64,000 nucleotides of DNA from a virus (IMGVR_UViG_3300012205_000277:27830-91829); one strand, 5' to 3'. Shown: positions 7,930 through 48,839, numbered from the stretch's first letter. Notes: generated from the sequence alone by a model not told the origin. Numbers and translations: made by a program.

Positions 7930-9561
7930 ATGCCGGCAGCCAAACCCACCACCCCCGAGCCGGACATCCCCCAGGAGCTGATCGACAAGTTCACGCCCAA
8001 AAGGTTAATCACTGTCAAACTCCGGAATCCCGCCGGGCATCCGGGGCAGGAACGGATCTGCTATTCCACCAAGAAACGCATCATCGTAAGGGCCGGAAGA
8101 CGTGGAGGCAAAACTTCCGCCAGTGCCATCAAGGCGGTGATGTCGTTTTTAGGGGACCCCGATAGAGGCATTCCACCGAAACGCGTCCTTTATGCCGCGC
8201 CGACCATCGACCAGGTGCGTAAATTCTGGGAAGAAGTCAAACGCGCCTTGCACGAAGGCCTGGCCTACAAGGTGTATTACAAAAACGAGACCAACCATAT
8301 TATCGAGCCCTTCGGAACTCCGCCGGTGATGCCCGGAGAACGTCCCCGGCACCCACGGATCCGCGCCAAAACCGCCTTCAACGCGGAGAGTTTGCGTGGA
8401 GATTTCGCCGACGTTTTGATCCTCGATGAATACCAACTGATGGATGAAACCGCCTGGACGGAAGTCGGCGCGCCGATGCTGATGGACAATAACGGGGATG
8501 TGATTTTCATATACACGCCACCCAGCCTCGAAAGCCGCTCGGCATCGAAGGCGCGCGACCCGCAGCATGCCGCGAAAATGTACCGCGAACATAAAGACGA
8601 TCCGTTGTGGGAATGCATCCATTTCGCGAGCAGAGAAAACCCGCACATCTCTGAAGAAGGGATCGAAGAAGCCAGTAAGAACATGACGGCGCTCGCCTAC
8701 CGCCAGGAGATTCTCGCCGAAGATACCGAAGAAATTCCGGGAGCCTTGTGGACGCGGAAAATCATCGAAGAGTCCAGAGTGAAATCGATTCCGTGCGAAC
8801 TGCGGCGGGTGGTGGTGGCGGTCGATCCGAGCGGCGGAAACCTTACCGAAGTCGGGATCATGGCGGCCGGCGAAGGCGCCGACGGGCATTACTATGTGCT
8901 GCGCGACGCTTCGATGAAAGCCAGCCGGCCGAAAGAATGGGCGCAGCGCGCGGTGAACCTGTATTACGAGCTCCTCGCCGACCGGGTAATCGCGGAACGC
9001 AACTACGGCGGGGACATGGTCGAAGAAACGCTACGTAACGTGGATGAAAACGTGTCTTACCACGACGTTGTTTCTTCGCGCGGGAAACTGGTGCGCGCCG
9101 AGCCCATCCTGGCGCTGTTCCAGCAAAACAAGATGCACCTGGTATGCCGCTGCGGGCAATCGCCCTGCCGCGAATTCGCGGAACTGGAAGAAGAACTCGT
9201 CACGTACACGGCCGAAGCCGGCCAGAAATCGCCGAACCGCTTAGACGCCATGGTCTTTGCAGGAACGGAACTTTCCGGCATGGGCAGCCTCGGCCTGCTC
9301 GACCTGTTCAAGTCCGGGCGCGCCGGGAAAATGGCGGAACGGGAAATCGCGAAGATCAAGACGTCGACCTCGCTGGCCGCGATCGCGACAAACGACAAGA
9401 CCCCGCGGTGCACGAATTGCGGAAGCTTGACGCTAAGCGTGCTCAGCCGCGGGCCGCAATTCGACGGCGGGATCGAGTACCGCTGCCAGGCTTGCGGAAA
9501 CCAGCAACCCAAGCCCACCATTTTGGGAATCGGCAGCCGACGAATCCAATTGGAAAAATAA
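7930..9561 (+). CDS. terL: Terminase large subunit
   Basis: Walker A AGRRGGKT, YAAPT, LRG..DVLILDE (Walker B), nuclease VVAVDPSG, SPNRLDAM; extra C-terminal zinc ribbon. Confidence 0.95.
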   Translation: MPAAKPTTPEPDIPQELIDKFTPKRLITVKLRNPAGHPGQERICYSTKKRIIVRAGRRGGKTSASAIKAVMSFLGDPDRGIPPKRVLYAAPTIDQVRKFWEEVKRALHEGLAYKVYYKNETNHIIEPFGTPPVMPGERPRHPRIRAKTAFNAESLRGDFADVLILDEYQLMDETAWTEVGAPMLMDNNGDVIFIYTPPSLESRSASKARDPQHAAKMYREHKDDPLWECIHFASRENPHISEEGIEEASKNMTALAYRQEILAEDTEEIPGALWTRKIIEESRVKSIPCELRRVVVAVDPSGGNLTEVGIMAAGEGADGHYYVLRDASMKASRPKEWAQRAVNLYYELLADRVIAERNYGGDMVEETLRNVDENVSYHDVVSSRGKLVRAEPILALFQQNKMHLVCRCGQSPCREFAELEEELVTYTAEAGQKSPNRLDAMVFAGTELSGMGSLGLLDLFKSGRAGKMAEREIAKIKTSTSLAAIATNDKTPRCTNCGSLTLSVLSRGPQFDGGIEYRCQACGNQQPKPTILGIGSRRIQLEK

Positions 9562-9676
9562 TGCAATGCCTGCCCTGCCTCGTTCGCGCCGTTTCTAACC
9601 CTGTTCGTGCCAATGCTCAACTCTCCTCGCCTGATTCCAAGTCTACTATCTTACCCGGCAGGTTGTCAAGGATTGC

Positions 9677-10444
9677 TTGACCTGGGGAAACAAAGGCGGT
9701 AAGTTGATGGGTATGCAGTTCTCGACCGCCGGCGTGATCCAGTATTTATCGATGCGGCTGGACTTCGTGCGCGACATCGACCATGAAGTGATCCGGCGGG
9801 TGGCGAACTACGTCGTCAAAGGCGACTGGACGATGGCCGAAGCGGAAGAATTTTTAAGGCAAGTCCAGGCGCAAGATGTGCGCTTGAAAAGAGGCAATCC
9901 CCCGAGAAAGGCGGTTCCCTCTTTGACCCGCACGGCCACGCAAATGCTGCAGCAGCAGGAAGCCGCCAGGGAGCGAATGAAAACGGTTTTTAATGACATG
10001 ATGGGGCCAGGCTATTGGGAAAGCTGCGAGGACCAGCGGCGGGCGCGGTTAGCCGCATTGGACACGTTCGGAATCCCGCCGGAGAGGGTGCCACCAGACG
10101 GTGCGAACCGGGCGACGGCGGAAGTCTTGCAACAGGAACAGGAATCGGCCACCGAGCAAATGATTATAGCTTTCAATGAACTGATGGGAGAAAACTATTT
10201 ACAAATCCCCTCTGCGCTCCGCACGGCCGAGCAGCAAGGCCAGATTGCGAGAGCCGAACTGCAGCGCCAGGATGAGGAGAATCGCTATCGGCTCGAATTG
10301 CTGAAAGACATGCCTTTTATCGTGCCGGGAGAAACTGTCGATGAATTGCGTGCTAGAAAGTCGAGTCCAAGTTCACCGGGAATCATACAGACCGAGCCGG
10401 AAACCTCTTTTCTTACCGGCAAGCGCAAAATTGTTTTGGAGTGA
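9677..10444 (+). CDS. Hypothetical helical protein
   Basis: Long ORF with internal repeat RTATQMLQQQE / RATAEVLQQEQE; ends KRKIVLE; start uncertain. Confidence 0.65.
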   Translation: MTWGNKGGKLMGMQFSTAGVIQYLSMRLDFVRDIDHEVIRRVANYVVKGDWTMAEAEEFLRQVQAQDVRLKRGNPPRKAVPSLTRTATQMLQQQEAARERMKTVFNDMMGPGYWESCEDQRRARLAALDTFGIPPERVPPDGANRATAEVLQQEQESATEQMIIAFNELMGENYLQIPSALRTAEQQGQIARAELQRQDEENRYRLELLKDMPFIVPGETVDELRARKSSPSSPGIIQTEPETSFLTGKRKIVLE

Positions 10445-10527
10445 ATCATGACACGCTGGCTGAAAAATGAATGGCGATTCATTAAATATATTTTCCGGTA
10501 TGCGGAGTTTAAGCCAAAGGAATAATC

Positions 10528-10980
10528 ATGTGCTTCCCGATGAAAGATGCCATCGAAAAAGAATGGCGCTACGCTGGCCTCGATTGCGTGGTGGCACGCG
10601 CCGACCTGGCGCACGCCGTGGGTGGCTGGGAAGGTGTGATGAAGCATCGCTGCGGCTATGTGCGCGTTCCGGCCGGACACCGCTTCCATGGACAACCGTA
10701 CGACGATATCGATGTGGACGTGCATGGCGGACTGACGTTTGCCGAAATCGAGCCGTGCGCCCATGAAGACGGCATCGGCTATTGGATTGGATTCGATTGC
10801 GCCCATTCCGGAGATGCCAACTGCCCGCCAGGCGATCCGGACGCCGTGCGTCTTGGACTACGCAGTATGCTCCAGGGCCATTACTGGACGCTCGATGAGG
10901 TCCAGGCGGAAACCGAACGCTTGGCGGAACAAGTCCTCGCGGCTGCCGCTCTTGGCGGCCGGCACATCGTTGTGGCATAA
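10528..10980 (+). CDS. Conserved phage protein (CGYV..HGGLT..GFDCAH family)
   Basis: HRCGYVRVP..H, VHGGLTF and WIGFDCAHSGD motifs; AAGGA RBS. Confidence 0.85.
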   Translation: MCFPMKDAIEKEWRYAGLDCVVARADLAHAVGGWEGVMKHRCGYVRVPAGHRFHGQPYDDIDVDVHGGLTFAEIEPCAHEDGIGYWIGFDCAHSGDANCPPGDPDAVRLGLRSMLQGHYWTLDEVQAETERLAEQVLAAAALGGRHIVVA

Positions 10981-11175: not shown

Positions 11176-11181
11176 TTCGGC

Positions 11182-11211
11182 TTGACAGCGCGGGCGGAGT
11201 TCTGGCAAAGT
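11182..11211 (+). promoter_or_regulatory. Promoter of the Pth / amber-tRNA unit
   Basis: TTGACA at 11182 and TGgCAAAGT extended -10; predicted start is close to ATG 11221, so probably leaderless. Confidence 0.55.
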
Positions 11212-11220
11212 CTTCGCATC

Positions 11221-11658
11221 ATGACCTAGATTCCACAAGAAGAATCTTACGTTTTTTGTTTCATCCGCACTAACCTCCCGACCGAACATCAATTTGTGCA
11301 AGCCCTTCATTCCGTCTATCATCTGGCACAACTCCGCCGCGAAGATGGCACGCCCAACATCGTCCTGATCGGGTTGCCGGATGCGGCGGCGCTCCGGCGC
11401 GCGGAACAGAAGCTGATTGCCGCGAAGATCCCGCATTTTGTTTGGGAAGAGCCGGATTATAATTTTGGGCTTACGAGCATTGCGACGGCGCCGATCCGCG
11501 GCGATGAGCGCAAGGCTTTGGCCAATTATCGAGTTTACAAAGCACCGGTGGTGTCAAGTAGCACGTCGCCCTCTAAAGGTGAAAGTGTCTGCTCAATACA
11601 GACCCGGTGCGCCAATTCCAGTGGGGCAGGCACGGTTGCTAGCGCTGTGCGGGTTTGA
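11221..11658 (+). CDS. Peptidyl-tRNA hydrolase, PTH2/PTRHD1-like, with in-frame TAG at codon 3
   Basis: MT*IPQEESYVFCFIRTNLPTEHQFVQALHS...IVLIGL...IPHFVWEEPDYNFGLTSIATAP...LANYRVYK. The track ORF from 11296 lacks the first beta-strand. Confidence 0.8.
11542..11614 (+). tRNA. Non-canonical tRNA, anticodon CUA (amber suppressor-like)
   Basis: GCACCGG/CCGGTGC-G-CCA acceptor; D stem GTGT/GCAC; TCGCC-CTCTAAA-GGTGA; T arm GTCTG-CTCAATA-CAGAC. Confidence 0.8.
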
Positions 11659-11675
11659 GTACCACTGCCCCACCA
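11623..11675 (+). ncRNA. 53-nt D-armless tRNA-like RNA, loop centred on CUA (or GCU)
   Basis: GGGGCAG/CTGCCCC-A-CCA; GCACGGT-TGCTAGC-GCTGTGC; short GGT-TTGAGT-ACC arm. Confidence 0.6.
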
Positions 11676-11681
11676 GTTTGA

Positions 11682-11756
11682 CCGCGTGTAGCTCAGTGGC
11701 AGAGCAGGGACTTCTAAACTCCTTGGGCGCGAGTTCGATTCTCGCCACGCGGTCCA
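11682..11756 (+). tRNA. tRNA, anticodon CUA (amber suppressor; Arg-UCU reading less likely)
   Basis: CCGCGTG/CACGCGG-T-CCA; GCTC/GAGC D stem; GGGAC-TTCTAAA-CTCCT; canonical GTTCGATTC. Confidence 0.8.
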
Positions 11757-11781
11757 AATGTCAAGTTTCCGGCGCAAAAAC

Positions 11782-11809: not shown

Positions 11810-11858
11810 CTTCGACGGAACTACCTGCGGAAGAATCCGCATCGAAAAGGAGAACCTG

Positions 11859-13780: not shown

Positions 13781-14047
13781 TTATTCGGCCTCGAGCCGGA
13801 TGGCGCGAATGCCATCGAGCGGGAAACGGTCTACGGGGATTTCCGGGTCGGGAGTTGCGGCGAGATCCGCGCGGAGTCCGCGGTAATCCAATTCGGCGAT
13901 CAGGCTGTCTCTCAGCCAGCGCCATTCCGGGGAAGTCATCACAAAGGTGGTCGTGAGAAAAGATAAATAAGAATCGGACAACAAGCGGATACGGGTGCCT
14001 TTATGCTTTCCGAATGGGATCACCGCCCTGCCATGCCGCCGTGCCAT
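13781..14047 (-). CDS. DUF3820-like protein
   Basis: IPFGKHKG...SYLSFL motif. Confidence 0.7.
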   Translation of the reverse strand: MARRHGRAVIPFGKHKGTRIRLLSDSYLSFLTTTFVMTSPEWRWLRDSLIAELDYRGLRADLAATPDPEIPVDRFPLDGIRAIRLEAE

Positions 14048-20246: not shown

Positions 20247-21374
20247 TCATGGGCATTGGGATTCCTTCCGATCGTTGTAAGTCGGCCCATAGCCTTCGAT
20301 GCGAACCAGTTTCCGGAATTCGGCTGGCAGCGGGTTTGGCGCCTGGTCCAGATGGTTCAAGGCAATCCAGTCGACCCCGCCGCAAATAGCGAGTGCTTTG
20401 CGGAATAGCTGCTCGTCGAAACGGCCGTACCGGAATGCTCCGGGGAATCCTGGCTCGTTGTGCGGCTCGGGATAGCTCAGAGTCGGATCTTCGGTCGGGA
20501 ATGCTCCGAGGCCGTGCCGTGTGTAGTAGGTACGGATAATGCCGACGCGCGTGCGTTTGCCATCATAGCCGGATTCATTCAGGAGCGTATCCGCATTGTG
20601 GAATGTGCAATCCGTCCACGTATTGAATCCCGGCTCGCCATGATTCTCATCGAGCAGCACGCCCTGGGCCCCTTCGAAGATGGCGCAATCTGTCTCGGCG
20701 AGCAAGGTTTTCAGATGCCCGCGGTCGACCACCTTCGCCGGCCAGTTTTTGTACCAGCTCCAGCACACGTCGATCAGATCGTCTTTCTGCAGCGTTGGAT
20801 CGACATAGCGTACGAATGGCTTGGTCATAAACCCGGCGGCGCTCAATTCATCCGAGGCCCAGAGTTCGATAAACTTAAGTTTCTGGCGAACTAAAGTTTC
20901 ATTTTTTAGGTCGCCGGCGAACAGTGCCCGATCGCCAAACTCCAGATGGAATTGGCGGCACTTGCCGATGCCCTGGCCGCAAGTGTTCGTGCGGTTGCCT
21001 GGAAGAGTCAAGAGGCGGTTCAATTCTCTGTGGAAAGGGGTGACGATTAATGCTTCGGCGTCGACCGTTGTACGCTCCCAGGCGTCAGTGACGCCAAGTG
21101 ATGCCAAATGCTCAGCTTCTCTCATAGCATTTATTGGATTGTAAAGCATAAATCTTGAGATATGCGTGCGCACACCGGGATGGAAAGTGCCACTCCCGAA
21201 TTGCTGGAAGATATGATGCCGGCCGTCGGGTGTCACTACGGAATGCCCTGCTTGGCAGCCTCCGGAATAGCGGACGACAAGCCCGGCATTATGCCAAAAA
21301 GTAAGTGCGTCAACTGTACTGCCTTTGCCGCAGTCGCCAAAACCCAAGCCGCAGACGAGGAAACTTTGCTTCAC
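20247..21374 (-). CDS. purA: Adenylosuccinate synthetase-like (PurA family) protein
   Basis: GLGFGDCGKG, RYSGGCQAGHSV, FEGAQGVLLD, RTYYTRHGLGAFPTE, FRYGRFD, LNHLD. Confidence 0.85.
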   Translation of the reverse strand: MKQSFLVCGLGFGDCGKGSTVDALTFWHNAGLVVRYSGGCQAGHSVVTPDGRHHIFQQFGSGTFHPGVRTHISRFMLYNPINAMREAEHLASLGVTDAWERTTVDAEALIVTPFHRELNRLLTLPGNRTNTCGQGIGKCRQFHLEFGDRALFAGDLKNETLVRQKLKFIELWASDELSAAGFMTKPFVRYVDPTLQKDDLIDVCWSWYKNWPAKVVDRGHLKTLLAETDCAIFEGAQGVLLDENHGEPGFNTWTDCTFHNADTLLNESGYDGKRTRVGIIRTYYTRHGLGAFPTEDPTLSYPEPHNEPGFPGAFRYGRFDEQLFRKALAICGGVDWIALNHLDQAPNPLPAEFRKLVRIEGYGPTYNDRKESQCP

Positions 21375-21944: not shown

Positions 21945-22136
21945 CTACCCCGCCCATTGTGGCCTTCGCTTTGCCAGAGCCTTCTGCACGGTCGTCGCAT
22001 GAATGCACAAGAGCTTCGCAATTTCCGGTTTGCTGACCCCGCGCGCGGCGAGACGGCGAATCTCGTCGGCGCGGGCATCGGCATTCTTCTTTTTGCGGGC
22101 TGCGACAGCGGTTCTCTTTGTGAGTTGATAGTCCAT
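21945..22136 (-). CDS. HTH protein
   Basis: GVSKPEIAKLLCIHATTVQKAL. Confidence 0.75.
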   Translation of the reverse strand: MDYQLTKRTAVAARKKKNADARADEIRRLAARGVSKPEIAKLLCIHATTVQKALAKRRPQWAG

Positions 22137-23068
22137 CAGGCTGTCGCGGAAGTTCCCAGATTGATCTTGCGGCCGCCCCAGAGGATTTTGCTGATGGCGG
22201 CAGCTTCGGCGGCGTCAGTGCCAGCGGCTACGAGGTCCGTGACGGCATCGGCTTCACTGTTCAGCCGGCCTTCGGTCATGCCGATGAGCGATCCGATTAC
22301 TTCGCAAATCAGGTTCGGATGCTGGAGCGTGATGACGCATTCGTTGCCGAACAGGCGCACGTACTGTTCCCTGGCATTATCGAAGCCGCCTACCGGCCAG
22401 AGCACGAAAACGTTGTAGAGCTGCTTGAGCGCCAGGATGGTTGTTTCAATCGGAATCGATCCAGGAAGGCTGTCGCCAAACACTGACCGGGCATGTTCCG
22501 CGCTGGTTGTCGAGAAAATGGGTTCATCGGCATACATGAAGAAGTAACCCTTCCGGTTGCGCTTCTCCATGCAATCGAGGATGGTCTTATTGGCGGCCGC
22601 ATACATGACGAGATCGTAGGACTCCCCCTGATTGCCGCCACCTTGTCCGACCAGCATCAGCTTGCGAATGTGCTCGTCGATCCGGTTGTCGGATTCGAAG
22701 TCTGAGATTTGTGTAGATTTGTCCCGGACCACGGTCCAATCGTCGTTGGCGGCAATCGCTACCTGGGGATCGGGAAGATAGCGCTCAAGCAGCGCCATGA
22801 GGTTCGGAAGTTTCTGCTGCGCTTCGCGCGCCCGCGAGATGTTCGATCCAGTGACGTCCAAGCAAAGCAGGACGGCATTCGATTCCGGGTGCTCCGTGCT
22901 GTCGCGGCTCTCGAGTTTCCCGAACGGCTTTGCTTTGATCCGTTTCGGATCGAGGTCCGGGTGGATGGTTGTCGCTGTTTGCGTGTATTCGAAATCATCC
23001 TTCCCGGTGAGTCTGCGCGTTGATGCCGCGCGTGAGTAGGTAGGTGCATCAAAACGTCCACTGCCCAT
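22136..23068 (-). CDS. von Willebrand factor A (vWA) domain protein
   Basis: MGSGRF start after AAGGAG; ESRDSTEHP, LDVTGS (MIDAS-like), GGGGNQGESY, GYFFMYADE. Confidence 0.85.
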   Translation of the reverse strand: MGSGRFDAPTYSRAASTRRLTGKDDFEYTQTATTIHPDLDPKRIKAKPFGKLESRDSTEHPESNAVLLCLDVTGSNISRAREAQQKLPNLMALLERYLPDPQVAIAANDDWTVVRDKSTQISDFESDNRIDEHIRKLMLVGQGGGNQGESYDLVMYAAANKTILDCMEKRNRKGYFFMYADEPIFSTTSAEHARSVFGDSLPGSIPIETTILALKQLYNVFVLWPVGGFDNAREQYVRLFGNECVITLQHPNLICEVIGSLIGMTEGRLNSEADAVTDLVAAGTDAAEAAAISKILWGGRKINLGTSATA

Positions 23069-23118
23069 GTGAATTCTCCTTTTAATTTTGGCCCGTTTGG
23101 CTACGCGACCGGAAAAAT

Positions 23119-23343
23119 TTATTCCAAGACAATTCTGCGTCCTGAGAAAAACGGTTCCACCGTCGGTGGCTGCTTGCTCAGCCAAATGCGGCTCCCTTCG
23201 GCAAGACAATCACAGTCGGGCGGGCCGATAACGGCCGGATGATAGTTCTCGCAATGCGCCGGCCCGCGCTCCCGGTGAAGCGCGAATCCAATGTCATTCA
23301 TTTCGTTGACTTCCTTGATGGTGAAATCGGAATACCGGATCAT
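23119..23343 (-). CDS. Small hypothetical protein ending in RRIVLE
   Basis: GAGG RBS; coupled to the upstream gene. Confidence 0.6.
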   Translation of the reverse strand: MIRYSDFTIKEVNEMNDIGFALHRERGPAHCENYHPAVIGPPDCDCLAEGSRIWLSKQPPTVEPFFSGRRIVLE

Positions 23344-27329: not shown

Positions 27330-28010
27330 TTACTGCGCTTCGACAAGCAAGCCGTAGTAATCGACTCTTCCTAGATTGATAACATAGCCTCTGGTAATAT
27401 GGGCCGTCGGGCACGGCATCGTCAGAAGACATTTGTCCGCGTAATCAAATACTTCTTTCTTTCCGGGAACATTCCAACTCTCAGGGATACCCATCACCCG
27501 CTTTGCCAACTTGCTGATCGGCATCTTGCCGCTTCCGGGTCCGTGTTGGCCATAAGATACAGTCCCGCGCGTCAAAAATACAACTGTGCGTTGCTTGATC
27601 CGGAATAGCAATTCATGCCAGATCTCCCATGGATCGCCGTAACAGTCCACGTCCACCGTGTTATACCTACCCAAGCCTGTGCCGGTGTATTCATCGACTT
27701 TCGTATCGCCATTCAAGGCCGCGATAAAGCGCGGCGTGATTTTAATTTGGAGCTGGCCGGCTTGCTTCGCGACTGCATCGACCGGCGTATACGTTTGGAC
27801 TTGCAAGGCCCGCGGCTGATCCTCGGGAGATAAGTCCGGATCGTAGCGCGGCTGGCGCCGGAGCTCCGACCAAACCATTCCCTCCCCGGCAAATAAATCA
27901 AGGACACGCAGCGGTTCCATCTGGGCTTCCTCAATCAGGAACCTTCGTAGGTAAACTTTATCGGCTAAAGAACGATTGTCGGTTTTTTTCTGCAGCGCCG
28001 AAGCACTCAT
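27330..28010 (-). CDS. SAM-dependent methyltransferase-like protein
   Basis: VLDLFAGEG motif I; VDVDCYGDPW motif IV-like. Confidence 0.7.
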   Translation of the reverse strand: MSASALQKKTDNRSLADKVYLRRFLIEEAQMEPLRVLDLFAGEGMVWSELRRQPRYDPDLSPEDQPRALQVQTYTPVDAVAKQAGQLQIKITPRFIAALNGDTKVDEYTGTGLGRYNTVDVDCYGDPWEIWHELLFRIKQRTVVFLTRGTVSYGQHGPGSGKMPISKLAKRVMGIPESWNVPGKKEVFDYADKCLLTMPCPTAHITRGYVINLGRVDYYGLLVEAQ

Positions 28011-29212: not shown

Positions 29213-29725
29213 TTACGGCTGTAGCAACCGCTGGATATATAATTTTGCCTTATCGTAGCCCCAGGCATGAATCGAATGGTCAATCTTGGTGACGTCCTCA
29301 TTCGGGAACACAACGTCAGCCGGGCCAGCGACTGACGGTTCCCAATTTATTGCGATGACTCGCTTGCGCCAGCCCAAAGTGACTCGGCCTTTCCTTGTGG
29401 TTATGGTGTACCACGGCTTCTGGCTGCAACAAGGCTGGGAGCAATAGCCGTTGGGAATTTCCTCTACGAAAATTAGCCCGGTAAGCGAAAAGGGTTCAAA
29501 TAGGCCAACCAGTGCTTGGCGTTCAACTTCCCGTTCGACGGCAACATCGGGATCGAGCCGCGCTGTTTCCAGCTCCAATGCTTCTACCAGTTTGTCGGCT
29601 AAGTCCCTCGCGGCGCGTTCATCGGCTTCGGTTACCGGCCGATGCAAAGAAACGCGAACCTCGATGCCCAAAGCATGCTTGCCAATGATTTCCTGCTTGT
29701 AAAGTGTCTTGTATTCGAGATTCAT
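29213..29725 (-). CDS. Conserved phage hypothetical protein
   Basis: EEIPNGYC..PWY..GRVTLGWRKRVIAINW..DVTK..IHAWGY. Confidence 0.75.
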   Translation of the reverse strand: MNLEYKTLYKQEIIGKHALGIEVRVSLHRPVTEADERAARDLADKLVEALELETARLDPDVAVEREVERQALVGLFEPFSLTGLIFVEEIPNGYCSQPCCSQKPWYTITTRKGRVTLGWRKRVIAINWEPSVAGPADVVFPNEDVTKIDHSIHAWGYDKAKLYIQRLLQP

Positions 29726-30609
29726 GGTCGTCCTTTCTTTTTATGCTTCAAGTCCTCAGCAATATTGCGACGAATTGTTCGCCAAGCTTTTTGCGCGCGC
29801 AAACTGCCGATGCTCGAAGCACCGCCGCATGTCGGACAAATGGTCAGGTGTGGCAGTTTGCATTTCAACTCCGAACACTTCCACGGCTTGTGGCATTTCT
29901 CGCAATCGTGGGTGTGTACTGGAAGGATTTTCAAATCCCCATTTGGAAGACCTTCCCGTTTATCACCGAGGAGCAATTCCACTTGCAATTTGTTTAGCGC
30001 GTCCCGAACATTGAATTGAACGCTCTTGGCCAGATCGCAGAAATTTACAGGATATTTGCCGCCCTCTTTCTTGTAAATCGCGCCTAAGTAGGCTCCAAGT
30101 TCTTCTTCCAGGGTTTCGGCATCGAATTCGAGCACGCTGCACCTGGACATAAATCGAGGCTCCAGATTCAATCTGCTGTTGGCTGTGAAAATGAAAATGG
30201 TTTTCGGCGGCCATGCGGTCGAATCCATTTTGGACAGGAGAGAGATTTGGGCCGCTGGCGACATTTTATCGGCCTCGTGAATAGAGAGGATATGCCAGTC
30301 GCAGGTTTTGCCGGTATCGAAATTGAATGCGCCGTATCTGCACATTTCCGTCTCGCGCCTTACCCGGTCCAGGTCGCATTCAGCGCTCGGGACTTCGTGA
30401 AGTTCGGCATTGATTTCTTCGGCGATGGCCTGTACCAGGGCCGTTTTCCCAAGGCCAGATCCGCCGAGAAAGAACCAGCTATGTTCGAATGGTTTCTTGA
30501 CGAATGGTTCGATCGTGCGTTTCACCTTCATCAATCCGATGAATTCGCTCACTCGCCGCGGGCGGTATTTCTCCGTTAGTGGCTCGGGGAACGGCAAGCT
30601 TTTCGTCAC
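29722..30609 (-). CDS. Clamp-loader-like AAA+ ATPase (RFC/DnaX type)
   Basis: LTEKYRP, GGSGLGKT, IHEADKM, FIFTAN, SRC motif, VRDALNKLQ. Confidence 0.88.
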   Translation of the reverse strand: MTKSLPFPEPLTEKYRPRRVSEFIGLMKVKRTIEPFVKKPFEHSWFFLGGSGLGKTALVQAIAEEINAELHEVPSAECDLDRVRRETEMCRYGAFNFDTGKTCDWHILSIHEADKMSPAAQISLLSKMDSTAWPPKTIFIFTANSRLNLEPRFMSRCSVLEFDAETLEEELGAYLGAIYKKEGGKYPVNFCDLAKSVQFNVRDALNKLQVELLLGDKREGLPNGDLKILPVHTHDCEKCHKPWKCSELKCKLPHLTICPTCGGASSIGSLRAQKAWRTIRRNIAEDLKHKKKGRP

Positions 30610-30968
30610 TTGAGCTGCCCTCCCTGACCCCAAAGATTGACGAAGACGCGCTTGCCATGCTCATCTTTCATCATGTTTGGGTGGGCGATGTCCTGACCCT
30701 GACAGTCATAATCGTAGATTTCCACGGTCATGCCGGGCGGGATGTTGTGAATCCTATGAATGACACCGCCATTCATGACGACGCGGATTGGCTTCTGTGT
30801 AGGAACTTCATGGCCCTTGCAATGCGTCCATTGGCCGGATTGCACCTGTGGACAATTTTTGTTGTCGCCGTGATGCATGGTGGTCATGTGTTTCTCCCTT
30901 TGGACGCTTAGGCCGCGCCCTGGCTTGAATCTTAGACACTAACATAAGTCCCGGCAGGGCAGGCGCGG

Positions 30969-31394
30969 TTAATCCTGCAAGACAATTGATCGCGTCGTTT
31001 GCAATAAAAATATCGGCTCGATCGGAGCACTGCTTGTGATTTTGCGGCCGGCCCGGAGGAATGCCTGTTCCGCCGCAGGAGTCGTCCGGCTCTTATCCAC
31101 TGGTTCCTTGGACAAGATCAGGTCGATGTGCTTGCACGCGATCTTCGGCGCTTTGTGAAACTTCCAGAACGGGCAGGAACATGCCCAGGTCCCGTCCGCT
31201 TTCATGGAAACTACGTATTGGGCATCGGAAGTCATGCTGGTGACTTGCCAACGCGCGATGTACTGCGCACTCGGTTTCAGTTTCGTAACCATTTTGTTTC
31301 TCCCTTTTTTTGATTCCAACCACTGTTTCACTTCGGCTTTGATGGCTGCATCAATTGTCTGCATCGTCTTCGGGAAGATTTTGTGCTTCTTCAT
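30969..31394 (-). CDS. SWIM zinc-finger protein
   Basis: WACSCPFW..CKHI; second strong in-frame start at 31292. Confidence 0.8.
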   Translation of the reverse strand: MKKHKIFPKTMQTIDAAIKAEVKQWLESKKGRNKMVTKLKPSAQYIARWQVTSMTSDAQYVVSMKADGTWACSCPFWKFHKAPKIACKHIDLILSKEPVDKSRTTPAAEQAFLRAGRKITSSAPIEPIFLLQTTRSIVLQD

Positions 31395-31936
31395 TTTGTT
31401 TCCTCCATCAGTCGTATGCATTCCTCAAGGCGCCCGGCGCGCAATAATCGGAGACGCTCACTCGCCGCCGGGATCGCCATCTCTCCTTTCCATCGTTGTT
31501 TGAGAAGCGGAAATCCGCGATGCCAATCGTTGAGCACACAAGCATCGCCGTCCCACGTGGCCTCATCGGCACGCTCTAGGGAAAATTCCACACCCAAATA
31601 AGCGGAACCTTCATTGAACCAGGTTGAGTCGAGCAGAATATTCTGCGCGTCTGCGTTCCAGGCATGAGGAACTGGCAAGGCGGCCCCACCAAAACCGGGC
31701 AGCGCATAGCCTTCGACATATTTAAGGTTGTAGATCGCGCCTGCAAAAACGGAATTCCCGTAGCAGTGTTTTGGAAGGCCGCGATAACCGTCTGGCGGAT
31801 AAGCCACCGGCTCGTACCAGATCCCATGCTCGATGATGAAGTCGGCGGAACAGGAATAGACAAAGCCATCCGGCTTCGTCATGCATTCCCGTATCTGTTC
31901 GAGGGCACGCAACAAGCGGTTTCGTGCCTGGTTCAT
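31391..31936 (-). CDS. Conserved phage protein (papain/transglutaminase-like Cys-His pattern)
   Basis: KHCYGNS..YVEGYA..PHAWN..LDSTW..YLGVEF. Confidence 0.65.
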   Translation of the reverse strand: MNQARNRLLRALEQIRECMTKPDGFVYSCSADFIIEHGIWYEPVAYPPDGYRGLPKHCYGNSVFAGAIYNLKYVEGYALPGFGGAALPVPHAWNADAQNILLDSTWFNEGSAYLGVEFSLERADEATWDGDACVLNDWHRGFPLLKQRWKGEMAIPAASERLRLLRAGRLEECIRLMEETK

Positions 31937-41951: not shown

Positions 41952-42785
41952 TTAAGCTGCTTTCTTGGATTTCTTTTTGCCTTTCGGAGCATCGTCCTCT
42001 TTTTCGGCGGCCTTGCGCCTCGGATTTTTCAAGCTGGCTTCGAGCGCAGCGGAAATGTCCACGGTTGCCGCCCGTGTCGGCATATTGATCGGTGCTGGCG
42101 CGGCGACCTTGCTATCCAGCTTCGAAGCAATCAACGTGTTCAGCCGTTGCAGGTAGCCATCTTCGTATTGCGATGGATTGAAGTCCGCAGCCAGGCTTTC
42201 GACGAGTTGCTTCGCTAGCTTTGTCTCCGCTGCGCTGAGGGCGATTGGTTGCAGGTTCTCAAATTCGGAAACCTGGGCGATTTCATTCGGATACCAAAGA
42301 TAATTCAAAACAAGGCCGTGACCTTTCGGGCGAAGAATCGCCACATGCTCGCGCGATGATTTCGTCAACTGCACGACAGCCACACGGCCGGTTTCCATCA
42401 GCGTCTTGGTCAAGAGGCCGTATGCTTTTCGGCCCGCATCATCCGGCAAAACATAAAATGATTCGGCCAGATAAAGTGGGTCCACGTCTTTCCATTCGAC
42501 GCATTCGCTGATCTCCATCACCTTTTCGGTAGTCGGCGTGATGCTTTCCATTTCTTCGTCCGTCAGTTTGACAATCCCACTGCCGGAATCATATCCGCGG
42601 TATGTTTCTGTCGGTTCAAGCATTACCGAACAACTGGGACACCACTTGGGCATTTTGATTCGACCATTGCAGGCGGTGTGAAAAGTATTCAGTTCAAGTT
42701 TTTTGTCGCGCGCGCCGACATTCAAATAAACCGGAATCGAGAGCAGACCAAAATTCAGAAAACCTTTCCAAACTTTTGTACTCAT
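41952..42785 (-). CDS. ku: Ku (NHEJ DNA end-binding) protein
   Basis: VWKGFLNFGLLSIPV, VDPLYLAESFYVLPD, AYGLL, FNPSQYEDGY, VDISAALEASL, basic tail. Confidence 0.95.
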   Translation of the reverse strand: MSTKVWKGFLNFGLLSIPVYLNVGARDKKLELNTFHTACNGRIKMPKWCPSCSVMLEPTETYRGYDSGSGIVKLTDEEMESITPTTEKVMEISECVEWKDVDPLYLAESFYVLPDDAGRKAYGLLTKTLMETGRVAVVQLTKSSREHVAILRPKGHGLVLNYLWYPNEIAQVSEFENLQPIALSAAETKLAKQLVESLAADFNPSQYEDGYLQRLNTLIASKLDSKVAAPAPINMPTRAATVDISAALEASLKNPRRKAAEKEDDAPKGKKKSKKAA

Positions 42786-42810
42786 TTTGTTTCTCCCTTG
42801 TAAAGAATTT

Positions 42811-42885
42811 GGGCGGACTTTTCGGCGTCCGCCCTAGCCGTTCCTGCGCTGCCATTCCTTACCCCATCGAATCGGGCCCGGTCTA
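42811..42885 (-). repeat. Hairpin plus 5-nt-period array upstream of ku
   Basis: GGGCGGAC/GTCCGCCC, then gccgttcct gcgct gccat tcctt acccc atcga atcgg gcccg gtcta. Confidence 0.65.
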
Positions 42886-43239
42886 AACGCTCCGTGCCTG
42901 CCGCGCCTGTGTTTCAACTTCGCTATACAGCTTTTTTGCTACTTCTGGCTTTTCCTGAATCGCCATAACTGCGGACCGGATCGCGGCCACTTGTTCTGGC
43001 GTCCAAGTGAGCTGAAACTTCCGGTGAATCTGCAAGTCTCCGGCATCAGTCAGAAATGCAAAAGCGCACCACTTGCCCTTTCGCAATTTGTAATACACGA
43101 GCCGCTTGCCAAACATTCCTTTATCTACTTCTCCCAAATCCCCGACGACGGTTTTCAGCCAAAGCAGCCGATAGATATCGGGTCCGCAGGGTACGGCGTA
43201 ATAACCATCAGGCAACACGATGGCTCCTTTTCCTTTAGG

Positions 43240-43270: not shown

Positions 43271-44362
43271 TTAATCTTCGAGGCGGATGGAGCGATGCGG
43301 CTTGTCGGTGACCATGCCGCTTAGTAGAGTTTGAATAGTTTCAAACCCGTGCCGGACGTAGTCGCGAACGGTTTTGTCCGTACGGAGCATGTCGGCATCT
43401 GCTGTCTTGATTAAGCCCTTGGCCTTGTCGACCAGGACTTTCATTGCCGTATCATTCGTGATGTTTCGCGAATCGAAAGTCTGCAAAAATTCCTGCAGCT
43501 TGTTGGTTGAATCGTCGCGAATGATTTTCTTCTTGCCACTTTCGTCCGGTTCCAATCGAGTGACCAAATGATCGACCATTTCCGATAACTGCGTACGAAG
43601 CAGTTGCTTGATGGTTTCGCGGGTTTCGGCCCAAGCGGCCTCGGCCTTGGCGCGTTCTTCTTCGTAGACTTCCTTGCTGACCGCTTCGAGATTCTTCGCG
43701 CTGTCCACATAGACGAAGCGCCAGGTCAGCTTGAATGCTGCGCGCAGTTCTTTGCCGGTTGGGTAATCGTCCTCGTTGAAGAAGTTTTTGACTTCATTGC
43801 CGACTTTCACTTTCGACAGCCGGGCCTTGGCTTCGGAAATGTAGGTGTTGAGTTTCTTGACCATGCTCTCAACCAGCGGTTCGAGATCCTTCTCACCCTG
43901 TTTCAGCCGAGCATTCACTTCCTCGACGAAATCCAGCGGAAGAAGGTAGACGCCTTTTTTGATCATGGAGGGCAGCGCCCGGCTCTCGACAAAGCGCCGG
44001 TGCTCTCCATAAAGCGAAGTAATCTTTTCCAGTTCTTCGGCATCGAGGAGTTTCTTGGTGGTGTTGAACCAGTTGTCGTCCTTTGCGTTCGGTGCCGAGG
44101 CGACCTGGAATTCATCGGATTGCACTTTGCGGCGGTTGCCGATGCCGTTGAAAGTCAAAACCAAAACGACGGTTTTCAACATCATTTCGCCGGCCGATAC
44201 CGACTTGTCCTGCTTTGGCAATACGATTTTTTTGTGCGGCTCCATCTTCGGTCGGGGCCTTGGTTTCGGTTTTACTATGCCGCGTCGCGCTCGAATTGTG
44301 TCCCACGCTTTCAATGCCGCTAAACGTCGCATGGACTTCTGCGCTGCTGTTGCTGCTTTCAT
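43271..44362 (-). CDS. DUF3150-like protein
   Basis: KKLLD..RALPS..GVYLLP..FNEDDYP pattern; near the AAA/DUF1257/DUF2997 genes. Confidence 0.65.
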   Translation of the reverse strand: MKAATAAQKSMRRLAALKAWDTIRARRGIVKPKPRPRPKMEPHKKIVLPKQDKSVSAGEMMLKTVVLVLTFNGIGNRRKVQSDEFQVASAPNAKDDNWFNTTKKLLDAEELEKITSLYGEHRRFVESRALPSMIKKGVYLLPLDFVEEVNARLKQGEKDLEPLVESMVKKLNTYISEAKARLSKVKVGNEVKNFFNEDDYPTGKELRAAFKLTWRFVYVDSAKNLEAVSKEVYEEERAKAEAAWAETRETIKQLLRTQLSEMVDHLVTRLEPDESGKKKIIRDDSTNKLQEFLQTFDSRNITNDTAMKVLVDKAKGLIKTADADMLRTDKTVRDYVRHGFETIQTLLSGMVTDKPHRSIRLED

Positions 44363-44977: not shown

Positions 44978-45658
44978 CTACTTTGCCCTGTTCGTGAACG
45001 GCAGCCTTGATGCCGCCGACGGTGATCGATTGGTGCACTTAGTCTCCTTTCGATATTGCTTGCGTGGCACTGATAGATAGACCACTTTATCGACGATGGC
45101 GTTTTGCCAGTTTGGAGCACAATAAATATTGAAGTCTCCGTGAATGTTTATTGCGTTCCGAATTTCGATGATAAGCTGCGATGCTTTCATCGGAATACGG
45201 CGGGAACGTCGTTGATTTAGGGTCTGTTCAAATTGCGTCGCCCAGCGACAATTGCCAGGTTCATAATCACCATTAGTATTTGGATAGCGGTCTAGTGAGT
45301 ATTTAGAAGAAGGTTTCGGCCCCATGTCAGCAAGAAAATTTGCGAAGGAATTCAACCATCGTTCGCAGATTTTTATGCCGCCATAGTTACTGAATTTTTC
45401 AGTATGGGCTCTATAGTAGCAACGGTCCTTCATGCACGCCCAAGCTCTATATTCCGGGCTAAATACACGGCCAATTGTATGGCCATGGGTTTTGTGACCA
45501 CCCAAATGACCGGTTATAAATCGGCGTGGCTGTCCCTTAACGACGCCAGGTCGTGATGGACGGGTTTTAATATAAGGTAGTGTATATTGTCCACAACCAC
45601 ATTCGCATTTGCGATTCTTAAGCAAAGAGATGATCCGAGAGCCAGCGATATTCTTCAT
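44978..45658 (-). CDS. HNH homing endonuclease-like protein
   Basis: CECGCG; EYRAWACMKDRC..YGGIKICERW..FLADMG..SLDRYPNTNGDYEPGNCRWAT. Confidence 0.85.
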   Translation of the reverse strand: MKNIAGSRIISLLKNRKCECGCGQYTLPYIKTRPSRPGVVKGQPRRFITGHLGGHKTHGHTIGRVFSPEYRAWACMKDRCYYRAHTEKFSNYGGIKICERWLNSFANFLADMGPKPSSKYSLDRYPNTNGDYEPGNCRWATQFEQTLNQRRSRRIPMKASQLIIEIRNAINIHGDFNIYCAPNWQNAIVDKVVYLSVPRKQYRKETKCTNRSPSAASRLPFTNRAK

Positions 45659-45887
45659 CCAGTGCCATCGTTCTGGACGGGAATGGCCCTAGAATTTTGT
45701 TTGGAATATTTAAGTGCGAGCATATGGGCGCCATATCTGCGGTCCAGCCACCGCTAGGGTGCGGTTCCACGAAACTCGCGCGGCGGATCGTGACATGGCC
45801 CTGGCCGAGTAGGTCGACCAGGGCATCGTCATAAATCATCCGCATGGTTCCGTCGGGCGATACATCGATTGTGAATGTATTTTGCAT
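45618..45887 (-). CDS. Conserved protein of the AAA cluster
   Basis: IDVSPDG..IYDD..IRRASFVEP..WTADM..LGPF..AL..E..WL. Confidence 0.75.
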   Translation of the reverse strand: MQNTFTIDVSPDGTMRMIYDDALVDLLGQGHVTIRRASFVEPHPSGGWTADMAPICSHLNIPNKILGPFPSRTMALDEEYRWLSDHLFA

Positions 45888-45888
45888 G

Positions 45889-46074
45889 TCAGCCTCGGGC
45901 CTTGGCCTGGACTGGTTCCGTCAAATGCATTTCAGGGCTGTCCACATCTTTCGTGACAATCCCGAGTGCTTCTTCGAGCGGTTTTGTCGCGGCTTTGCAT
46001 GCTTTCCCACGAAAACCTTTCGTGGTGATTTTGACGCTGCCATCCGGTGCCACATCAATCAGTATTTCTTCCAT
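45889..46074 (-). CDS. DUF2997 family protein
   Basis: IDVAPDGSVKITTKGFRGKACKAATKPLEEALG. Confidence 0.88.
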   Translation of the reverse strand: MEEILIDVAPDGSVKITTKGFRGKACKAATKPLEEALGIVTKDVDSPEMHLTEPVQAKARG

Positions 46075-46121
46075 TGCGTTTTCTCCCTTCGAATTTTTGG
46101 AATCGATCGTGACCTGGCACA

Positions 46122-46511
46122 TCAACGGGAACAACGAAGTTGGACATGGCCATTGGCTTCGAGAACACGATGCATGCGGAAGCCACGCGGAATTTTCTTG
46201 GCAGCAACCTGCAAGGAATATTCTTGGCGTAAACGATTTGCGGTCGTGCCACCAATCGCATCCATCAAGCCATAACCGCCGCCAAAGCTGTCGGCACGCA
46301 AAGTCCAGCCGCGGCCTAGTGGATTCTTAATGACGCCGACTTCGTAACTGTGCGAATTGCCCTTGACGGCAATCGCATGTTCACAAGCTTCGGTGTAATA
46401 AGATTTGTGGGTTTTCTGATTCTCCCGAAACTCCAGGCCAAGTGGTTCGCACGATGCCTTCAAACATTCCAAATCCAAAATTTCAACTTTCAAGTCCGCT
46501 GTATGTGACAT
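46122..46511 (-). CDS. DUF1257 (Ycf35-like) family protein
   Basis: MSHTADLKVEILDLECLKASC..YEVGV..RLRQEY..GHVQL. Confidence 0.85.
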   Translation of the reverse strand: MSHTADLKVEILDLECLKASCEPLGLEFRENQKTHKSYYTEACEHAIAVKGNSHSYEVGVIKNPLGRGWTLRADSFGGGYGLMDAIGGTTANRLRQEYSLQVAAKKIPRGFRMHRVLEANGHVQLRCSR

Positions 46512-46535
46512 CGATTCTCCTTTGTTTACGAATTT

Positions 46536-46560
46536 AAAAGGGCGAACCGAAGTCCGCCCT
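46536..46560 (-). terminator. Terminator with UUCG loop
   Basis: GGGCGGAC-TTCG-GTTCGCCC-TTTT. Confidence 0.75.
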
Positions 46561-46562
46561 GT

Positions 46563-46627
46563 GCCCTGCCCTGTGACGCCCAGCCATAACGCACCCGTGC
46601 GCGCCTATGCTTGCCTAGCCCAGCCGA
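46563..46627 (-). repeat. 5-nt-period array (13 units) between promoter and terminator
   Basis: + strand: gccct gccct gtgac gccca gccat aacgc acccg tgcgc gccta tgctt gccta gccca gccga. Confidence 0.8.
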
Positions 46628-46631
46628 CTGG

Positions 46632-46660
46632 ATTATACCCCGGATTAAGTTATAGGGCAA
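46632..46660 (-). promoter_or_regulatory. Sigma70-type promoter
   Basis: TTGCCC-17 nt-TATAAT. Confidence 0.7.
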
Positions 46661-46897
46661 GTTTAATGAATTCCCCGGACTTGCTGTTCTAACGCTGCGT
46701 ATTGCTGATTGACCCAGGCCACCATCCTTTCAAATTGCGCCTTGTCGAGCAGCGCGGTTTGCGGGAAGCGCGAGCCGGGAATCCAGAATTCGACAACATC
46801 CGTATTGCCGGCATGGACCATGTGGATGATCAATTCCGTCACTGGTTCCCCGGGCATTTCGATGCCCCGGAATTTCGTCATTTTGTAAGAGAGCATA

Positions 46898-47284
46898 TTA
46901 GTCCTTGAGCGTGATCTTCCTTTTTTTGGTTTCAAGCAGCGGCGTGCTTGGGCTGGCCGCAGCCTTTTTAGTTTGTTTCGAGGCCTCGGCCATGGTCTTG
47001 ACCTGTTGTTTCATCTCCTCGGCGCGTTTGAGCATGTTCCGGTGATAGAAATACGCCCTTTGAACATGAGGACAAGGGGATTCTTGTGACCCTTCGACCC
47101 ATACGGTCGTACCGGTGACGCCATCGCCATACTCTGTGGTATCGCAAGGGCAATGCCATTCGGTGCCCTTGCGATAGACGGTGAATCGGGCGGCGGTATT
47201 CTTTATGGAGACAACCAGAAAAGCGGTTCTGCCGTTTTTCTCTTGCTCCACATGCTTGACGTACCACTCAAGATAAACGGACAT
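46898..47284 (-). CDS. SWIM-like zinc-finger protein
   Basis: FTVYR..WHCPC...PCPHV; ends KRKITLKD. Confidence 0.65.
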   Translation of the reverse strand: MSVYLEWYVKHVEQEKNGRTAFLVVSIKNTAARFTVYRKGTEWHCPCDTTEYGDGVTGTTVWVEGSQESPCPHVQRAYFYHRNMLKRAEEMKQQVKTMAEASKQTKKAAASPSTPLLETKKRKITLKD

Positions 47285-47285
47285 T

Positions 47286-48839
47286 TTAGTTGACGCTTCC
47301 GCTGCCTTTGCCGCCACTGCCAGTGCTGATTTTGCGCTTCGGCGCGTTCATGATGCCGACAGCGACAACCATCCTCTCGGGCTCGGTTTCATCCATGCCT
47401 TCGGGCGCTTTGTAGGGCCCGGGATAGGCGGCGGAGATATAGCGGCCATCGGCTTCCTTGCGCAGGGAAGTGATGCGCTCGGCGGCGCTCGTGGATAGAG
47501 GGACGATGTAGTCGGCCGCTTCCCGGAGCGGGATATTCAACCGGTGGGCCAAGAGACAGCAATTCTTGATTTCCCTTCCGTTCCATCCGGTGTCGGGTGG
47601 CCGGTCGGTATCCTTCAAGTCGAACTTTGCGAAATAGATGTTCCAGATCAGGTTGCGTTCGGAAGGCGTCGGCAAGTCATAGAAGAACGTGCCAAAGGTG
47701 TACCGGCTGCGTAGTTCTGCCGGCAATCCTTGGATGTTATTGCAGGTAGCGATCCACAGGGCCCGTCCCTGCGACACGGCTTCGATGACCTTGAGAATCG
47801 CTCGCATGTTGGCGTTGCTTTCCCCGACCAGCGACCCTTTGGCATTTCCGAGATCCAGCTGTATGGTTGGCACGCCAGCTTCATTTCCAAAGGCTTTGGC
47901 GATATCGGATTTGGCGACGCCGGGATGTCCGATCGACATGATGCCGGTCGAATCGTGGTCCTGCATGAAGGATAGCTGGTTGCCGAGGAGCTCCTGGGTC
48001 GTGCCGCTCAAGTCGCCGCCTTCGCCGCCGGCAAATTGCTTTTCGATTTCATCCTGGAAGACGATGGCGCGCGGGCGATCCTTGCCATTCATCACGCTGG
48101 TCAGGAATTTCTTGATGTTCTCGCAGCCGCCAATATCCTTGAAACGTTGCTGGCCGCGCCACACTTTGAGGCCGGGAGTCTGTTCGATCTGCTGGCGCTT
48201 ACGTTCCCAGAGCTGTTCGAGGTCCATGCCGTTCTTCCGGATGCTCATCGCGCACACTTGCTCGGCCGGGAAGGCCGCCAGGCCGCAAAGAGCGTCCACA
48301 GCCCGTGACATGGTTTCGGCAGCCGGGTTTGGCTGCTTTACGGCCGAATAGGTTTCCGCGACGATCGCTTCCAGGCGATTGGCATCCGGCAAAGGCTCGT
48401 CCAGGACAAGAACATCCTGGGCAATCTCCGGAGGAAGCGTAACGTCCGGGCAAACAATAACCAAAGTGCGTGTATTGGTTTTGAAGGCTCCGCGCAGGTT
48501 CCAGATGGCTTGTACGACCGCCGGGTCTTGAAAGAACCGATGCAGATTCGCCATGAAAAGAATCGACTCTTTGGGCATCTGCATTGCCTTGACCAGCATT
48601 TCAACGGGATTTGCCAGGGCGGCTGGTTCGCCAAGTGCCCGCACAAGCGCTTTGCCCTGGGGATCGTTTACGGCCGTCAATCCGCGGACGCAATCGTGCA
48701 GAACCATCGGCGAATTGGCATTGTCTTTGTTGAGCGCGATCGTCTTGATGGTCGCTTCGATGTCCGGAGTGCGGACGGCAATCAATGGAGCGGATGCGCG
48801 CCGCGCTAGGTTGAACTGTTCAATAAAACTTAGAGCCAT
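47286..48839 (-). CDS. AAA+ ATPase (Ycf46-like) with degenerate Walker motifs
   Basis: PLIAVRT, FKDIGGCENIK, QDEIEK, GHPGVAKS, GSLVGES, IATCN..LPAELRSR, FFYDLP, WNGREI. Confidence 0.88.
   Translation of the reverse strand: MALSFIEQFNLARRASAPLIAVRTPDIEATIKTIALNKDNANSPMVLHDCVRGLTAVNDPQGKALVRALGEPAALANPVEMLVKAMQMPKESILFMANLHRFFQDPAVVQAIWNLRGAFKTNTRTLVIVCPDVTLPPEIAQDVLVLDEPLPDANRLEAIVAETYSAVKQPNPAAETMSRAVDALCGLAAFPAEQVCAMSIRKNGMDLEQLWERKRQQIEQTPGLKVWRGQQRFKDIGGCENIKKFLTSVMNGKDRPRAIVFQDEIEKQFAGGEGGDLSGTTQELLGNQLSFMQDHDSTGIMSIGHPGVAKSDIAKAFGNEAGVPTIQLDLGNAKGSLVGESNANMRAILKVIEAVSQGRALWIATCNNIQGLPAELRSRYTFGTFFYDLPTPSERNLIWNIYFAKFDLKDTDRPPDTGWNGREIKNCCLLAHRLNIPLREAADYIVPLSTSAAERITSLRKEADGRYISAAYPGPYKAPEGMDETEPERMVVAVGIMNAPKRKISTGSGGKGSGSVN

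Follow-up and report, generated by a model that had tools for sequence, protein, structure and literature searches.

A shared C-terminal tail on unrelated phage proteins and its link to an AAA+ ATPase/DUF3150 gene set

In bacteriophage T4, shared docking tails bring replication, late transcription and, less directly, packaging together on a single clamp. In cyanobacteria, a DUF2997-ycf35 gene cluster is on record (PMC4284462). We analysed a 64,000-nucleotide stretch of viral DNA (IMGVR_UViG_3300012205_000277), hereafter called the window, which comprises bases 27830-91829 of a single viral contig of 91,829 bp with a completeness of 60% (CheckV); coordinates refer to the window unless another source is named. 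An earlier note on this stretch had described a C-terminal tail, R-x-I-x-L-(E/D), on many unrelated proteins and had proposed that it is a phage-wide addressing signal for one hub. We found that the tail is a selected peptide motif. It is not private to this phage and is a family-wide ending of a mobile-element gene set of AAA+, DUF1257, DUF2997 and DUF3150 genes (hereafter the module), and the clade of the window phage has extended it to the large terminase, a von Willebrand factor A (vWA) protein, and SWIM-like and small proteins. In the searchable literature on DUF3150, Ycf46, DUF1257, DUF2997 and phage, we came across no account of the tail or the phage module.

Seven tails and their conservation in relatives

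All seven strong tails listed by the earlier note were found at the ends of the open reading frames (ORFs) that it had named. On the plus strand, the large terminase (TerL, 7930-9561; Pfam Terminase_6N/6C, phrog_2), which has a C-terminal Zn-ribbon extension, ends in ..GSRRIQLEK, and a 255-aa protein (9677-10444), for which family searches including Pfam and PHROG gave no match, ends in ..GKRKIVLE. On the minus strand, the tail is carried by a small protein of 80-88 aa (13781-14047, ..GIRAIRLEAE), a 74-aa protein (23119-23343, ..SGRRIVLE), a small SWIM-like protein with a weak SWIM match that is encoded upstream of the clamp loader (30969-31421, ..TRSIVLQD), the DUF3150-like protein of the module (43271-44362, ..KPHRSIRLED) and a small protein whose gene adjoins the AAA gene (46898-47317, ..KKRKITLKD).

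We counted the pattern [RK]-x-I-x-[LIV]-[EDQK] with at most 3 residues beyond it, and used the internal frequency of the same pattern as the background lambda. There were 7 tail matches among the 167 called genes compared to 0.25 expected (Poisson P 9e-9). Shuffling the residues 1000 times gave a mean of 0.24 matches and a maximum of 3. Strict tails numbered 7 in the relative G001 and 6 in the relative G003, against approximately 0.2 expected in each. A position matrix was also built on 15 tails of four genomes, in which the seven tails score 16.5-22.4 (19.2 for the 74-aa protein) and the next best protein scores 5.3. The codons of the tail vary synonymously between copies and the DNA 3' of the stop codons is unrelated, which shows that the tail is selected at the protein level and is not a DNA repeat. 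These observations bear directly on the alternative in which the tails match by chance or arise from some DNA element that the genes share, be it a terminator, a repeat or a ribosome-binding site. The motif is indeed short, and nothing more speaks for this alternative; it is refuted by the above P value, the differing codons, the unrelated downstream DNA and the conservation in orthologues, and we give it practically no weight. Recoding of TAG, which could have produced false C-termini, was rejected as an explanation, since all seven tails stop at TAA or TGA and a conserved in-frame TAG was seen only in a peptidyl-tRNA-hydrolase-like ORF.

The earlier note had also described hydrophobic residues and a flexible linker before the motif, and this description holds. 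In the matrix, the core consists of R at position -2 (an invariance that was fixed there by the seed pattern), R or K at -1, I at 0, L at +2 and E at +3, and it is preceded by hydrophobic residues at -8 and -6 (Leu in 8 of 15), G or P at -4 and K at -3. The linker is Pro-rich: the 23 residues preceding the motif contain 8.9% Pro versus 5.4% in the same stretch of untagged proteins, and have fewer hydrophobic residues. Two AlphaFold2 (AF2) models were made, one of the vWA protein and one of the ATPase, and each places the tail in a disordered end.

Of the weaker matches that had been proposed, the tails of the vWA protein and of the AAA ATPase are real, and the third was not counted. The vWA protein (22136-23209, minus strand, probable start 23068) has the sub-terminal tail ..GGRKINLGTSATA and its orthologues in G003 and G004 end in ..RRRITLP; in the ATPase, the Arg of the tail (R502) does not vary across an alignment of 78 sequences, comprising the window protein and 77 homologues that are 49-78% identical to it. 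The protein at 10528-10980, ending in ..GGRHIVVA, scores 1.2 in the matrix and has no orthologue for comparison.

The tail is kept in four relatives of the window phage (G000), namely G001-G004. Five relatives (G001-G005), found by a terminase search, were retrieved whole or nearly whole. The terminase identity to the window is 48-61% for G001 (179 kb), G003 (124 kb) and G004 (165 kb). Of the other two, G002 is a fragmentary sequence from a near-identical phage and G005 is a smaller relative by terminase. Orthologues retain the tail down to 45-60% identity, including those of TerL, the SWIM-like protein, the DUF3150-like protein, the families of the proteins at 13781 and 46898, the vWA protein and the ATPase. 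The TerL tail is present in G001, G002, G003 and G004, and more distant TerL relatives end near residue 450, without the extension. The orthologue of the 255-aa protein in G002 ends in ..SKRKIVLE, the orthologues of the 13781-14047 protein in G001, G002 and G003 retain R-x-I-x-[LV], and both the SWIM-like protein and the protein adjoining the AAA gene have the tail in G001, G003 and G004; tagged relatives of the SWIM-like protein are also found in approximately 15 other viral loci. The flavour of the tail varies slightly with the genome, being KR[RK]-I-x-L-E in G000 and G001 and [RK]-R-x-I-x-[LF]-D in G003 and G004.

As a separate observation on the terminase, G003 encodes a 967-aa version (46149-49052 of G003, locus L071) with an insertion of approximately 300 aa flanked by the segments aligned to residues 448 and 442-543 of the window TerL. 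The insertion may be an intein or an inserted domain.

Association with an AAA+ ATPase gene set

The ATPase (47286-48839, minus strand; Pfam AAA) is a two-tier p97/Cdc48-like AAA+ protein. Its AF2 model has a predicted local distance difference test score (pLDDT) of 91, and Foldseek matches over both tiers lead to p97, Rix7, NVL and Drg1 at E values of approximately 1e-11. Its family has more than 1100 members at identities of at least approximately 50%, nearly all of which end in tails of the type G-R-x-[IFLM]-x-x-x-E. The window protein has the tail ..PKRKIST.. followed by a Gly-rich stretch ending in VN. This arrangement is common to the ATPase of this clade and its nearest relatives, which have the Gly-rich spacer and then a conserved ..[VA]-N ending after the R-K-I motif; the ending may be a second terminal motif.

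The partners of the ATPase are encoded on the same strand. The tagged DUF3150-like protein scores 19.5 bits with the DUF3150 profile, below the cut-off of 24.9, and three of its database homologues carry PF11348; the tail is present in 33 of 38 homologues, down to 40% identity. An untagged DUF2997 protein (45889-46134) matches PF11211 with 51.9 bits versus a cut-off of 24.1. The untagged DUF1257-like protein (46122-46511) had no Pfam match in its window copy and was assigned by its BLAST cluster, in which the G003 protein matches DUF1257 with 26.4 bits versus a cut-off of 22.2. A further untagged partner is a conserved 89-aa protein (45618-45887), shared by G000, G001, G003 and G004; it also occurs in 39 of 80 viral loci.

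These 80 viral loci were collected with a profile of the ATPase, and 78 of them lie outside the clade of the window phage. A gene of the DUF3150-like family, as detected by a family hidden Markov model, lies within 10 kb of the ATPase gene in 78 of the 80. For the wider loci we used the tail pattern R-x-[IFVM]-x-[LIVFM]-[DE]. In the loci outside the clade, 87 of the 2328 called genes end with the tail versus 5.9 expected; they consist of 43 DUF3150 genes, 17 ATPase genes and 27 others, and the latter are all on the strand of the module and are spread across 21 loci. Lineage-specific variants of the tail, such as the RKFNF type or the RLISLE type, are often common to several genes of one locus. 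The tail is linked to the module beyond this clade as well.

The module is also found in cells. Copies were found in Acidobacteriota, Nitrospirota and Armatimonadota, including the chromosome of Nitrospira moscoviensis, and one Nitrospira copy has a context resembling an integrative and conjugative element (ICE), with TraG, ParB, UvrD and primase. In the bacterial chromosomal and ICE copies, the tail is on both the ATPase and the DUF3150 protein. Among cultured phages, Tunturiibacter phage Tunturi_3 has the ATPase/DUF3150-like pair (gp103 and gp96).

A proposed docking motif and its alternatives

As the most economical mechanism, we propose that the tail is a docking motif of the AAA+ module and that its carriers are tethered to one site in the assembly; we estimate the probability of this reading at roughly 0.5. 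Tail binding, the identity of the receptor and the effect of the motor on tagged proteins we infer as follows. The ending [KR]-R-x-I-x-[LIV]-[ED] would be a short linear docking motif, usually placed after a Pro-rich linker and a hydrophobic pair. The ATPase and the DUF3150 protein of the module both carry it in the general form R-x-hydrophobic-x-hydrophobic-acid, and this clade has copied it onto at least five more proteins, namely the large terminase, the vWA protein, the SWIM-like protein and small unknown proteins. The alternating pattern would form one beta-strand that adds onto a single receptor site of the AAA+ assembly, located on the ATPase ring or else on a small partner of the ATPase, and the tagged proteins would thereby be tethered to the motor as cofactors or clients. 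Seven to nine unrelated phage proteins are probably plugged by the tail into one common partner, for which the AAA ATPase is, by association, the best-supported hub candidate.

Several points weigh against this reading. The ATPase's own tail is degenerate in this clade (..KRKIST..), and many members of its family show half of the motif only. Covariation between the AAA and DUF3150 tails is weak (51 locus pairs, p 0.008 to 0.12 without correction for phylogeny). The contrast in which the module and the tails are absent together comes from a single genome, G005, where the ATPase, DUF3150 and the tails are all missing. The AF2 monomer of the ATPase leaves its own tail disordered and undocked, which is uninformative on binding in trans. 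Finally, a reader outside the module, for example a host protein that the module needs, would give the same co-occurrence. The addressing signal suggested in the earlier note is partly supported: the tail is selected, conserved in orthologues, placed on disordered ends and tied to one gene set. The reading needs correction in that the tail is not private to this phage and that the analogy with small heat-shock proteins (sHSPs) has no receptor in G000, G001, G003 and G004; the hubs that the note proposed are at most candidates.

Such an outside reader could be a DNA sliding clamp, either the beta clamp of the host or an unrecognised phage clamp, on which the tail would dock its carriers and thereby gather DNA-handling proteins including the terminase on DNA, as T4 gp45 does. 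The phage encodes an RFC-small/T4 gp44-like clamp loader (29722-30633, minus strand; phrog_168, DNA_pol3_delta2), whose best solved relatives are RFC subunits and gp44, and a tagged gene lies just upstream of the loader in both G000 and G003. The carriers and their neighbours handle DNA (TerL, Ku, ligase, ParB, DnaB), a beta-clamp gene lies within approximately 10 kb of the module in 3 module-bearing phages, and the flank of the p21 PIP-box (..KRRLIF..) pairs with PCNA as a beta-strand. However, searches with PF00712, PF02767, PF00705 and PF02916 found no beta-clamp, PCNA or gp45 domain in G000, G001, G003 and G004, and a beta clamp is encoded in only 4 of 32 module-bearing records. Moreover, the 15-tail matrix has no Gln or aromatic pair at fixed positions, unlike the known clamp-binding motifs (QL[SD]LF, PIP box, gp45 tails), whose consensus is Gln plus a hydrophobic/aromatic core. 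We therefore consider docking on a clamp unlikely. If the hub were supplied by the host, the beta clamp would be the leading candidate, because the phage has a clamp loader.

No DNA polymerase or clamp was recognisable in the annotated parts of the genome. A clamp candidate at 27330-28010, conserved near the loader, was rejected as it belongs to a family resembling S-adenosylmethionine-dependent methyltransferases (motifs VLDxCAGxG and DIDTYG). This family, of approximately 200 aa, is unnamed in Pfam and PHROG and gave 282 matches in the representative library.

The structure of the ATPase raises another alternative, in which the tail is a degradation or unfolding tag for the pore of the phage AAA+ unfoldase or for a host protease (ClpXP, Lon) and serves timed turnover and not stable docking. 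The fold is that of substrate-threading unfoldases (p97, Rix7, Drg1), and the tails form disordered chain ends; motors of this type usually take hold of their substrates at C-terminal tags, as with ssrA and ClpX or the Rlp24 tail and Drg1. Against this, it would be odd to find a pure degron on the ATPase itself and on its obligate partner DUF3150, both of which carry the tail, and up to 13-15 residues separate the motif from the C-terminus in the vWA and AAA proteins. Known signals for ClpX, Lon and Tsp do not resemble the acidic ending, and in the loci examined there was no module-linked protease except for an M50 peptidase near the Nitrospira ICE copy. Turnover is accordingly a distinctly unlikely function of the tail.

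The sHSPs, whose C-terminal anchors the earlier note had brought in as a precedent, offer a third possibility, that the tail mimics the I-x-I/V anchor and docks in an alpha-crystallin groove. R-x-I-x-[LIV] near the C-terminus does resemble these anchors (IbpA ends in ..RRIEIN and Hsp16.5 in ..GINIE), but the tail goes with the AAA/DUF3150 module rather than with a chaperone gene. As for a phage sHSP as the hub, the HSP20 domain (PF00011) is absent from G000, G001, G003 and G004, while 13 of 14 control genomes gave a match, so that suggestion failed. We regard mimicry of sHSP anchors as very improbable.

A reader might also be sought among the carriers. The vWA-fold protein has a MIDAS-like DVTGS motif, and its AF2 model (22136-23068, pLDDT 92) gives Foldseek matches to integrin beta-I, the vWA domain of Ku80 and that of NorD. 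Its metal site could coordinate the Glu or Asp after the Leu of the tail, as integrin I-domains do with ligands of the LDV/IET type. The confident fold, the DVTGS motif and the acid placed directly after the second hydrophobic residue of the tail are in favour of this role. However, the family was found in only 2 of the 50 viral records that bear the module, or 1 of 26 when the count is limited to records at least 90% complete; moreover, the protein carries the tail itself and its family mostly ends in a different one. A general reader in this protein is therefore largely refuted despite its confirmed fold, its family being absent from 48 of the 50 records, and we attach hardly any probability to it.

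The usual ending of the vWA family is ..G-x-G-K-A-A-R-L, which is replaced by the RR-I-x-L tail in this clade only. The ..GKAARL ending was sought on neighbouring genes in other phages and is not common to them. The family is highly conserved, with 54-60% identity among most of its best 120 matches.

Returning to docking on the AAA+ module, a bolder version can be put forward as a tentative idea that we hold to be doubtful. The tail could be the address code of an AAA+ machine in which DUF1257 and DUF2997 serve as reader subunits of a p97-like motor that collects tagged proteins. This clade would then recruit the terminase and DNA-end proteins, coupling packaging or end processing to an ATP-driven remodeller, and the idea could also explain the orphan ycf46 and ycf35 genes of cyanobacteria and plastids.

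Host, other genes and comparison with known systems

The window phage has a G+C content of 52-57% and encodes a large terminase, a DnaB-type helicase, a bacterial-type Ku, an ATP-dependent ligase, a ParB-like protein and the RFC/gp44-like clamp loader, together with PurA, glycosyltransferases and 33 tRNA genes, 2 of which have a CUA anticodon. The G003 contig was binned within a metagenome-assembled genome of Acidobacteria, which fits a host that is bacterial and probably acidobacterial. An archaeal host, at which tRNA(CUA) and a TerL 45% identical to that of Methanosarcina virus MetMV had hinted, was unsupported, as DnaB, Ku_bact and the nearest cellular copies of the module (Acidobacteriota, Nitrospirota) point to bacteria.

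Several further observations concern the remaining genes. Ku (41952-42785, minus strand; TIGR02772 Ku_bact, 210.8 bits; Pfam Ku) lies downstream of the module. In the region upstream of it (42785-43046, minus strand), the resemblance to Ku of G001 and G003 begins approximately 20 codons before the Ku ATG and crosses a TAG that is aligned with Lys in both orthologues; this TAG may be a second suppressor-dependent codon, or the start may be mis-placed. The peptidyl-tRNA-hydrolase-like ORF (11182-11756) has its in-frame TAG at codon 16, in the same place in G001 and G002, and two tRNA(CUA) genes (11542-11614 and 11682-11756) are directly downstream of it. Orthologues gave no support for TAG read-through in ORFs other than this one. 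A 1114-aa protein (726-4070 of locus L046; genome 18726-22070, minus strand) clusters with portal/MuF-type proteins and has a C-terminal 2H phosphoesterase/Acb1-like domain and a weak LAGLIDADG match in its middle part. Auxiliary metabolic genes (window 20247-21374; 3164-4372 of locus L045) encode adenylosuccinate synthetase (PurA), a UDP-glucose/GDP-mannose dehydrogenase and several glycosyltransferases.

A second tail system, unrelated to that of T4, would make a large and functionally uncharacterised gene set directly accessible to experiment; the p97-like ATPase to which it is tied occurs in hundreds of phages, in integrative elements and in chromosomes of Acidobacteriota and Nitrospirota. 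The tail peptide could be used both as a bait for the receptor and as a marker that lists the clients of the machine genome by genome. A tail on the terminase is unusual and suggests that packaging is wired to the AAA+ machine. Bench tests are feasible in two cultured systems, Tunturiibacter phage Tunturi_3 and Nitrospira moscoviensis.

Among known systems, the docking tails of T4 gp45 (on gp43 polymerase, gp33 and gp55) and the beta-clamp motifs are similar in that unrelated phage proteins use one terminal peptide for a single hub, some of the carriers handle DNA and a gp44/RFC-like loader is present here. They differ in that the sequence of the phage tail is unrelated and has no Gln or aromatic core, no clamp was found, and the tail tracks the AAA+/DUF3150 module. 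The C-terminal tail of p97/Cdc48, with its PUB and PUL readers, and the EEVD of Hsp70 and Hsp90, read by TPR domains, provide the example of a disordered C-terminal peptide on a p97-like motor, of an acidic end, and of the same tail on unrelated proteins with one type of reader. The phage motif, however, is basic, then alternates hydrophobic residues and then ends in an acid, and the cofactors carry the motor's own tail; no PUB, PUL or TPR reader was identified in the phage system.

The XB tail of SspB, which binds the ClpX N-domain, and tags of the ssrA type share with the phage carriers a layout in which a flexible linker joins a folded body to a short C-terminal peptide for an AAA+ machine, although the phage ATPase is a two-tier p97-like protein and not ClpX, its tail ends in acids and the machine itself is tagged. 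In ESCRT-III and Vps4, the C-terminal MIM is likewise common to many proteins and serves one classic-clade AAA ATPase, read by its MIT domain. There, MIM1 is helical and the carriers are paralogues, whereas in the phage unrelated proteins carry a strand-like pattern and no MIT-like N-domain is seen in the model. The sHSP I-x-I/V anchor and the IPV motifs of BAG3 have an I-x-[ILV] strand near the C-terminus and illustrate an oligomerisation peptide that clients could also use, but the phage tail goes with the AAA+ module, and an alpha-crystallin domain is absent from these phages.

In gene content, the phage module resembles the set of Ycf46 (AAA), Ycf35 (DUF1257) and DUF2997 of cyanobacteria and plastids, in that DUF2997 and DUF1257-like partners adjoin an AAA ATPase; the phage ATPase may be Ycf46-like. 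To our knowledge, DUF3150 and a shared tail have not been described for the cellular Ycf46/Ycf35 set, and in the phage and bacterial copies of the module they accompany the ATPase.

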